Shown: piece by piece, positions 18,539-18,626 of the stretch
Numbering within the stretch: position 1 is the stretch's first letter
Layout: every line of letters starts with the position of its first letter
From: a virus
Lineage: Duplodnaviria > Caudoviricetes
Length of the DNA stretch: 60,804 bases
Direction: 5' to 3' (one strand)
IMG/VR virus record: IMGVR_UViG_3300035670_000221
Location: 1 to 60,804 of that record
Position numbers and translations under genes: made by a program
Notes under the pieces: generated by a model
The model's input: only the letters and a program-made list of their open reading frames with translations
Told to the model about the DNA's origin: nothing
Databases searched by the model: none

Positions 18539-18626
18539 GGGGTCGAGTGGACGATTAGTTGCGGTACACGATAAGTCGATACTTAAATACTTTAACATGG
18601 GGTTCGACTCCCCATCGACTCCACCA
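18539..18626 (+). ncRNA. 88-nt tmRNA-like RNA (tRNA-like domain only, Ala identity)
   Basis: GGGGTCG/CGACTCC acceptor with G3:U70, A73, CCA. Perfect T arm. No D stem and no anticodon arm. Confidence 0.7.

Follow-up and report, generated by a model that had tools for sequence, protein, structure and literature searches.

What is the 88-nucleotide (nt) stretch that lies among the tRNA genes of an uncultured phage and that neither ARAGORN nor Rfam recognizes? The window, that is, the whole stretch of DNA analysed here, is a 60.8-kilobase (kb) viral contig (IMG/VR record IMGVR_UViG_3300035670_000221, estimated to be 51% complete) containing a tRNA array at 11206-18701, an Amidase_2 endolysin gene, a large terminase gene and a portal gene. 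The element under study is a mini-RNA gene at 18539-18626 (+) within this array, set between tRNA-Tyr and tRNA-Met with spacers of 1-2 nt, and these coordinates were confirmed; ARAGORN called 19 tRNAs in the window, left the element uncalled and reported no transfer-messenger RNA (tmRNA). A sequence-only reading had proposed a tmRNA without a tag reading frame, an interpretation that our analysis partly supports. Together with SmpB, tmRNA forms the main bacterial ribosome-rescue and protein-tagging system, and to our knowledge the dealings of phages with this system are poorly known. We favour, with a probability of roughly 0.6, the reading that the element is a tag-less mini-tmRNA gene, comprising only the tRNA-like domain (TLD), whose product competes with the host tmRNA, and as judged from our analysis the element probably interferes with the host rescue-and-tagging system.

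Conservation and fold of the element

A terminase search provided 30 related viral loci and 24 metagenome loci, the latter mostly the same contigs, and homologues were sought with scripts for an acceptor, T stem and CCA outside called tRNAs, with two pattern scans and with a covariance model. Further versions were found in related phages, namely L002 (89 nt; identical in L004 and L005), L006 (84 nt; identical in L027 and L047) and the longer L016 (119 nt), L028 (118 nt), L012 (125 nt) and L022 (121 nt). Another version, L061 (98 nt), lies in a complete 67.5-kb phage of 55% GC content with three tRNAs, which is unrelated to the window (no tblastx match at E 1e-5), and a ninth version is carried by a DNA contig from run X4 of another study.

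All versions follow a common plan of a 7-base-pair (bp) acceptor, a 9-nt linker, a variable arm, a 4-nt linker, a 6-bp T stem with a 7-nt loop, the acceptor 3' strand, A and CCA. In the window its parts are as follows.

18539-18545 (+): acceptor 5' strand GGGGUCG, nt 1-7; G3 pairs with U70, and U stands at position -1; the seven pairs are 100% paired in eight versions
18546-18554 (+): linker J1, nt 8-16, AGUGGACGA; 9 nt, a D-loop analogue with no D stem; GG at nt 11-12
18555-18592 (+): variable central arm, nt 17-54, helix-2 analogue; base weak in the window, with A19-U53, G20-C52 and U21-A51 between U.U pairs
18563-18583 (+): inner hairpin, nt 25-28/42-45 and 31-32/39-40, with the 6-nt loop AUAAGU; compensatory changes
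18593-18596 (+): linker J2, nt 55-58, UAAC, at the place where all 58 examined tmRNAs have GGAC
18597-18615 (+): T arm, 6-bp stem AUGGGG/CCCCAU and 7-nt loop UUCGACU; the six pairs are 100% paired in eight versions, and five of the six have changed on both sides
18616-18626 (+): acceptor 3' strand CGACUCC, discriminator A73 and encoded CCA

The acceptor that the sequence-only reading had described (GGGGTCG/CGACTCC, A, CCA, with G3:U70) was thus recovered, and so was a canonical T arm, the stem of which is 6 bp long (AUGGGG-UUCGACU-CCCCAU) and not 5 bp as had been stated. Linker J1 measures 9 nt in every version, with GG at nt 11-12 in 6/8. The arm ranges from 34 to 75 nt, and in 7/8 versions (L022 by eye) nt 17 is the exact first position of its 4-6-bp helix, which ends directly before J2 and differs in sequence each time, the window being the outlier. 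Linker J2 reads AAAC in four versions, UAAC in two, AUAC in one and UAGA in one; the T loop follows UUCRAnn in 7/8, L006 having GGCAGCG. Position 8, which is U in tRNAs, is U in just one of the eight versions.

A covariance model built from four versions (R1) scored the four held-out versions L028, L061, L012 and L022 at 60.0, 51.6, 42.7 and 30.3 bits, the best ordinary tRNA reaching 27.5 bits. In the eight-version alignment 97.0% of the helix cells are paired, compared with 71.3% in shuffles (0/500 reach 97.0%); 12 of the 17 pairs have changed on both sides, slid controls pair at 48-59%, and helix 2 taken separately is 85.7% paired with 4/4 pairs changed on both sides. MAFFT misaligned L061 and L006, so the counting was done in register with a script and also on an alignment fitted to the model, which leans towards the modelled structure; the scripted register counts agree with it. 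Within the acceptor, pairs 4, 5 and 6 have changed on both sides across the eight versions while G3:U70 and A73 are kept in 7/8 aligned versions and in the X4 variant. Comparison of the versions shows that the element is a real conserved gene, far beyond chance.

The central arm is where the earlier structure did not stand. A helix GUUGCGGUA/UACUUUAAC capped by UAAGU-CGAU-ACUUA had been drawn there, whereas comparison favours pairing of nt 25-28 with 42-45 and of nt 31-32 with 39-40. Pair 27:43 changes from U-A to C-G in L002, and pair 32:39 changes from G-C to A-U twice, in L002 and in the X4 contig (18570 G>A with 18577 C>U in the latter). The earlier hairpin, which shows only one-sided wobble changes, and the minimum-free-energy (MFE) fold are not favoured by this comparison. 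The inner hairpin is backed by comparison and not by energy: the comparative fold has -20.4 kcal/mol, the earlier central helix -23.1 and the MFE fold -27.0. Folding energy alone gives the 88-mer an MFE z-score of only -1.78, which by itself is no proof of structure.

Searches by sequence or pattern reached few members. A blastn search of 18300-18800 against 50,697 phage records returned only the flanking tRNAs, in 47 records, with the element covered in none, and exact-pattern scans of viral contigs for window-specific 5' and 3' motifs yielded nothing or three L002-type contigs. A looser pattern scan returned seven stretches: four known members, L061 as a new member, and L059 and L062, both described below. 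A pattern carrying AAAC matched nine stretches in viral contigs, of which five are members and four (L065-L068) were rejected as chance matches with neither T stem nor acceptor. The same pattern matched 52 stretches in 185,579 species genomes, none of them a member; 51 look like chance, and the other is L105.

Resemblance to tmRNA

Having established a family, we asked which class of RNA it belongs to. It shares with the TLD of tmRNA a 7-bp acceptor with G3:U70, A73 and CCA, the marks of alanine identity; a reduced, stem-less D loop with GG close behind the acceptor, the GG that in the TLD contacts the T loop; and a canonical T arm placed directly against the acceptor. An acceptor end of alanine identity is given as a TLD feature in a passage of PMC3968760. 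Encoded CCA is common to all 20 tRNA-like genes of the array, the element included; G3:U70 and the 6-bp T stem are each unique to the element, the T stem being 5 bp in 18/19 window tRNAs and carrying a mismatch in the remaining one.

Neither a canonical tRNA, tRNA-Ala included, nor a tRNA-Sec accounts for these features. The former was rejected on the grounds that ARAGORN and RF00005 make no call and that the element has no D stem, no anticodon arm and a 6-bp T stem; the latter (RF01852) scored 14.3 bits, and the element has a 7/6 branch, as opposed to the bacterial 8/5, and no UCA anticodon loop. At threshold Rfam assigned the element to no family, and with E values up to 10 it returned only noise, namely the 14.3-bit tRNA-Sec match and a tmRNA_permuted match of 13.7 bits that spans the neighbours.

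As the sequence-only reading had it, the element has no anticodon arm, pseudoknot or terminated tag open reading frame (ORF). Inspection by eye of the eight versions revealed no D stem or anticodon loop in any of them, and no common anticodon loop or Ala anticodon. No tag frame is conserved in any version, the frame in the L016 loop being broken by an indel in L028, and the 118-125-nt relatives are likewise without one. Full-length tmRNA or tRNA-Ala in this slot of the relatives had been named as what would speak for a remnant or a misassembly; ARAGORN called neither in the window or in the 30 related loci, and it did find the tmRNA with its tag in L105, the positive control.

The more specific evidence came from comparison with bacterial tmRNAs. 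L105 is part of a Dehalococcoidia genome, reached through a chance pattern match, whose tmRNA has a 6-bp T stem, and we take its phylum to be Chloroflexota. In small samples of 29 tmRNAs each, the second assembled haphazardly from other phyla, the T stem is 6 bp in 17/29 and 5 bp in 12/29 from that phylum (the phylum of the genome L105/L126), and 5 bp in 28, 6 bp in none and unresolved in one from the others. GG begins at nt 10 or 11 in 29/29 tmRNAs of that phylum and at nt 11-13 in 28/29 of the others. The 6-bp-T-stem tmRNAs of the phylum further resemble the family in an acceptor of the form GGGGnnG, G3:U70, A73-CCA, three nt followed by GG, and a UUCGAnn T loop, the 6-bp T stem abutting the acceptor in both. 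The acceptor of L002 (GGGGAUG/CAUCUCC) is the commonest one among the tmRNAs of this phylum, and the first 12 nt of L061 match 11/12 positions of one of them. From these sequences, the tmRNA likeness is specific in the 6-bp T stem and the position of GG, and the layout of a tag-less RNA with alanine identity proposed at the outset gains from the match of its 5' linker and 6-bp T stem to tmRNAs of one phylum. The family differs from tmRNA in having no mRNA-like domain, pseudoknots or tag, in its length (84-125 nt compared with about 350-400 nt), in having 4 nt after GG where tmRNA has 7 (UUUCGAC), and in AAAC in place of GGAC.

A 90-nt sequence of another phage, L059:7403-7492 (-), is a form bridging the element family and tmRNA. 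It has the full TLD plan, with the acceptor GGGGGUG/CACCUCC including G3:U70, a 6-bp T stem and ACCA, and it keeps the GAC.../...GGAC helix base of tmRNA, scoring 44.5 bits with R1 and 23.6 with the 3' half of the Rfam tmRNA model. We left it out of the family as it lies in frame inside the linker of a 158-amino-acid TSCPD-domain ORF (ribonucleotide-reductase C-terminus), where it could be a sequence with two uses, the relic of an attachment site or an RNA gene inserted there.

Two side observations concern the stretches met in these scans. In L105 the tmRNA occupies 1804-2163, and its last ~35 nt are duplicated at 2599-2632, ~470 nt downstream, as beside an island integrated into ssrA. L062:1456-1560 (105 nt) was set apart as a different irregular tRNA-like gene with a 5-bp T stem and an 8-nt T loop; it has G3:U70 and a possible 6-bp anticodon stem with the loop UUUAAAG, its best Rfam match is tRNA-Sec at 20.4 bits, and a tandem duplication of ~90 nt covers its 5' half and the region upstream.

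RNAs of this kind are already known; the literature consulted describes a single phage-encoded one. Mycobacteriophage DS6A has a published 'TLD only' tmRNA, that is, one without a coding sequence (CDS-less), described in parts of PMC4131195 and PMC11915505, which we located at JN698994 28478-28557. Like the element it is phage-encoded and ~80-90 nt long, with a 7-bp acceptor, G3:U70, A73, no D stem, a short helix-2 hairpin, a canonical T arm, no tag frame, no pseudoknots and a sub-gathering Rfam score, and it is unannotated in its record. It departs from the element in its T stem of 5 bp, its linker of 14 nt with GUCGAC at the end, GCAC ahead of the T arm, the absence of an encoded CCA (CUA follows A73) and a position outside a tRNA array, and it scores 34.7 bits with the Rfam tmRNA model and only 22.5 with R1. 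Small RNAs within a phage tRNA cluster also exist in T4, where rnaC and rnaD (species 1 and 2 RNAs) are stable, resemble tRNAs and serve as RNase P substrates, their function not being known. A canonical T arm closes rnaC, but both lack a G3:U70 acceptor, measure 119-139 nt and show no evident TLD plan. CDS-less organellar tmRNAs, found in jakobid and other mitochondria and as plastid forms of about 65 bp, likewise consist of the tRNA-like part with no tag reading frame, but according to the relevant passages of PMC11915505 their genes are often permuted into two pieces and are accompanied by a nuclear SmpB; the Rfam mt-tmRNA model has no listed match in the window. Irregular tRNAs such as the 8/4 and 9/3 allo-tRNAs and the 8/5 tRNA-Sec share a non-7/5 geometry, some of them have G3:U70 and are charged with alanine in E. 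coli, and some lie in phage tRNA clusters, as part of PMC5389517 describes; they differ in having anticodon arms, in decoding, and in a 12-bp (8/4, 9/3) or 13-bp (8/5) branch in contrast to 7/6 here. The tables of the tmRNA database may list more phage TLD-only forms. The element family is a distinct variant of this kind, with a 7/6 acceptor/T-stem branch, a 9-nt linker, AAAC for GGAC and an encoded CCA inside tRNA arrays.

Possible action on ribosome rescue and its alternatives

How might such an RNA serve a phage? We propose that it would be co-transcribed with the phage tRNA array and excised like its neighbours, RNase P cutting at G1, after U-1, with the CCA already encoded. The product would fold with its 7-bp acceptor stacked on the 6-bp T stem, the GG of the D-loop analogue docking on the T loop and the hairpin arm replacing helix 2 of tmRNA, and would be charged by the host alanyl-tRNA synthetase through G3:U70 and A73. 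Having no anticodon and no tag frame, the RNA cannot decode. We found smpB (PF01668) in 0/5 phage records, two of them at least 98% complete, so the SmpB of the host would be needed. Most probably the RNA would engage host SmpB and EF-Tu and compete with host tmRNA at stalled ribosomes, with one of two outcomes: rescue would be blocked, or a single alanine would be added without a tag. Phage proteins made from cut or non-stop messages would thereby escape the degradation tag. A passage of PMC4131195 reports strong inhibition of tmRNA in E. coli by a similar TLD-only molecule, which may titrate SmpB.

A supply of non-stop messages is suggested by the layout of the array. The amidase ORF ends at 18370 and abuts tRNA-Arg at 18371; between 12975 and 18371 the stops of two ORFs end 10 and 2 nt inside the next tRNA, and two are flush with a tRNA. 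In L061 the TGA of the upstream ORF is nt 6-8 of the element itself. Since ORFs end at or inside tRNAs, as they often do across the whole phage clade, tRNA processing should yield non-stop messages. This arrangement underlies a narrower version of the proposal, which we regard as speculative and rather unlikely as a whole: that the family, matched to its hosts, mimics the 7/6-type tmRNA found in Chloroflexota-like bacteria and converts trans-translation into a non-degradative rescue. Phages with such arrays would cleave their polycistronic transcripts at the 5' ends of tRNAs, leaving many ORFs with a lost or exposed stop; the same cuts would free an alanine-charged mini-tmRNA that takes the stalled ribosomes via host SmpB; and a single alanine would be added with no tag, allowing array-encoded proteins such as the endolysin to escape ssrA-directed proteolysis. 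The upstream gene of L061 would lose its stop codon through the very cut that releases the RNA.

Several observations count against competition with host tmRNA. Stops inside tRNAs are equally common with and without the element and hence show no association: counting ORFs of 80 codons or more that have their stop within the following tRNA, loci with the element have two (window) or one (L002, L006, L016, L028, L022 and G004), and loci without it have four (L011), three (L020), two (L019, L025 and L029) or one (L007 and L014). Of 22 related loci extending 1.5 kb or more upstream of the terminase gene, only 9 carry the element, the other 13 having tRNA-Thr, tRNA-Cys or nothing before tRNA-Met. 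The TLD helix-2a base motifs, 5' (UU)CGAC and 3' GGAC, are missing, even though the helix itself covaries: GGAC precedes the T stem in 58/58 examined tmRNAs, a position that reads AAAC, UAAC or AUAC in the family, and the 5' UUCGAC is reduced to 4 nt. Of the D region that the sequence-only reading had called tmRNA-like, the unpaired state and the GG at nt 11-12 hold; the helix-2 base motifs GAC...GGAC of tmRNA are absent. The region of the helix-2 base is bound by SmpB, as stated in part of PMC3968760, so with these motifs lost SmpB binding may be weak or lost.

Individual versions also depart from the plan. L022 has G3-C70, L028 ends in UCA and not CCA, and L006 is missing both the GG and the UUCGA T loop and nevertheless has the same sequence in L006, L027 and L047, a poor fit to a function that needs contact between D loop and T loop. 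Decay is one possible reason for these three forms; another is that the acceptor and T-stem helix may suffice for the function. In the window itself the base of the arm pairs poorly, and the MFE fold differs from the comparative one. Finally, the Rfam tmRNA model (RF00023) has no listed match for the window, any score lying below the 14.3-bit tRNA-Sec match that was kept, and none for the element in L061, L012, L016, L022 or L028. The comparison of Rfam models suggested earlier thus left the window element unscored, and it gave the DS6A RNA, our control, 34.7 bits, which is also below the gathering score (47 bits, as for RF01852). Ordinary tRNAs obtain 25-37 bits with RF00023, so this model is undecisive between tmRNA and tRNA.

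The loss of the helix-2 base motifs and the dispensability of the elbow contact (GG and T loop) in L006 fit another explanation, which is possible, if doubtful: an alanine-chargeable tRNA-like RNA that acts outside trans-translation, either supplying alanine to a non-ribosomal transferase or sequestering, as a decoy or sponge, a host factor or defence toxin that targets acceptor stems or CCA ends. Its likeness to tmRNA would then reflect descent or convergence and not function. The best-kept parts are indeed the acceptor with G3:U70, A73, CCA and the T stem, and the element stands between the amidase gene and a membrane-protein-like ORF. However, no transferase or partner gene is common to the window and L061 among the ORFs near the array, which were those inspected (tblastx none at E 1e-5), the 6-bp T stem and GG position point to tmRNA specifically, and a TLD-only RNA is reported, in the part of PMC4131195 cited above, to act on tmRNA function.

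We consider it improbable that a tmRNA fragment or tRNA was once captured and that the element is its decaying remnant, kept only as RNase P or 3'-end punctuation in a polycistronic array. Such a relic would suit the patchy occurrence in 9/22 loci, the decayed-looking L022 (G3-C70, no GG, odd 3' tail), L028 (UCA) and L006 (non-canonical T loop), and the great variability of the central arm in length and sequence. A neutral G.U wobble, however, would drift quickly, yet it is kept in 7/8 while neighbouring pairs turn over compensatorily; moreover, the element occurs in two unrelated phage lineages, with linker lengths and arm register kept exactly. That it is a decoding tRNA-Ala with an aberrant body, like D-armless or irregular tRNAs, can practically be dismissed: the absence of any tRNA-Ala called by ARAGORN in the window or 30 related loci and the UUGCGG common to the window and L002 would favour it, but a 5-bp stem closed by a 7-nt loop with U33 and a purine at 37 is present in none of the versions, the eight versions share no position for an Ala anticodon, the apical loops measure 6 nt (window, L002) or ~19-21 nt and are AU-rich (L016, L028), and neither ARAGORN nor the Rfam tRNA model makes a call.

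The family is invisible to the standard tools ARAGORN and Rfam, and its marker, a 6-bp T stem with GG at nt 11-12, ties the RNA to tmRNAs of one phylum, which suggests an origin for it and hosts for these uncultured phages. It also suggests a testable connection of tRNA-array processing with non-stop phage messages and with escape from the tag. Should the RNA prove to be charged and to bind SmpB, it would be a natural compact inhibitor or re-router of trans-translation.

Array context and neighbouring tRNA-like genes

The element is immediately 5' of tRNA-Met in 6/7 related versions and is flanked at a larger scale by the amidase gene and the membrane-protein-like ORF. Its immediate surroundings in the window are listed here.

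18450-18536 (+): tRNA-Tyr(GTA), upstream neighbour, called by ARAGORN/Rfam, 2 nt from the element
18628-18701 (+): tRNA-Met(CAT), downstream neighbour, called by ARAGORN, 1 nt from the element
19270-19294 (+): terminator-like hairpin with a T run, which probably ends the array transcript; context only

The tRNA-Met of the window is not reached by Rfam at gathering level. Elsewhere, tRNA-Met genes with the 3' strand CCCCGCA followed by A-CCA were left uncalled by ARAGORN at L011:~6586-6657, L029:~9265-9336 and L012:1730-1802.

At the other end of the array, the stretch 11127-11203 holds a good promoter-like site (TTGCAT, 17 nt, TG-n-TATAGT), which the pattern scanner missed, and after it a hairpin GAGGCGGAA...UUCCGCCUC that ends in G-CCA 2 nt 5' of the first tRNA-Leu. 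Three window tRNAs carry the leucine anticodons UAA, CAA and UAG (11206-11282, 11286-11362 and 12975-13051); at 77 nt including CCA, they are without the long variable arm of bacterial tRNA-Leu, and the same slots hold versions of 84-87 nt in L004, L006, L011 and L024.

Other unusual genes were seen in the related arrays. An amber-suppressor tRNA (anticodon CUA, labelled Pyl by ARAGORN) is present at L007:1881-1954, L019:7994-8067, L025:3548-3623 and L026:5769-5844, and none is present in the window. A tRNA of 76-77 nt called as Ser(CGA), with the anticodon at 36-37, occurs at L006:4810-4886, L027:6919-6995 and L029:8471-8546 in the slot that holds tRNA-Arg(TCG) in other relatives, and it may reflect a one-base shift of the call or an 8-nt anticodon loop. 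Lastly, L019:8484-8578 is an uncalled 95-nt tRNA-like sequence directly 5' of tRNA-Gln, with the acceptor GGCUCGC/GCGAGCC, the T loop UUAGAUU, U73 and CCA.

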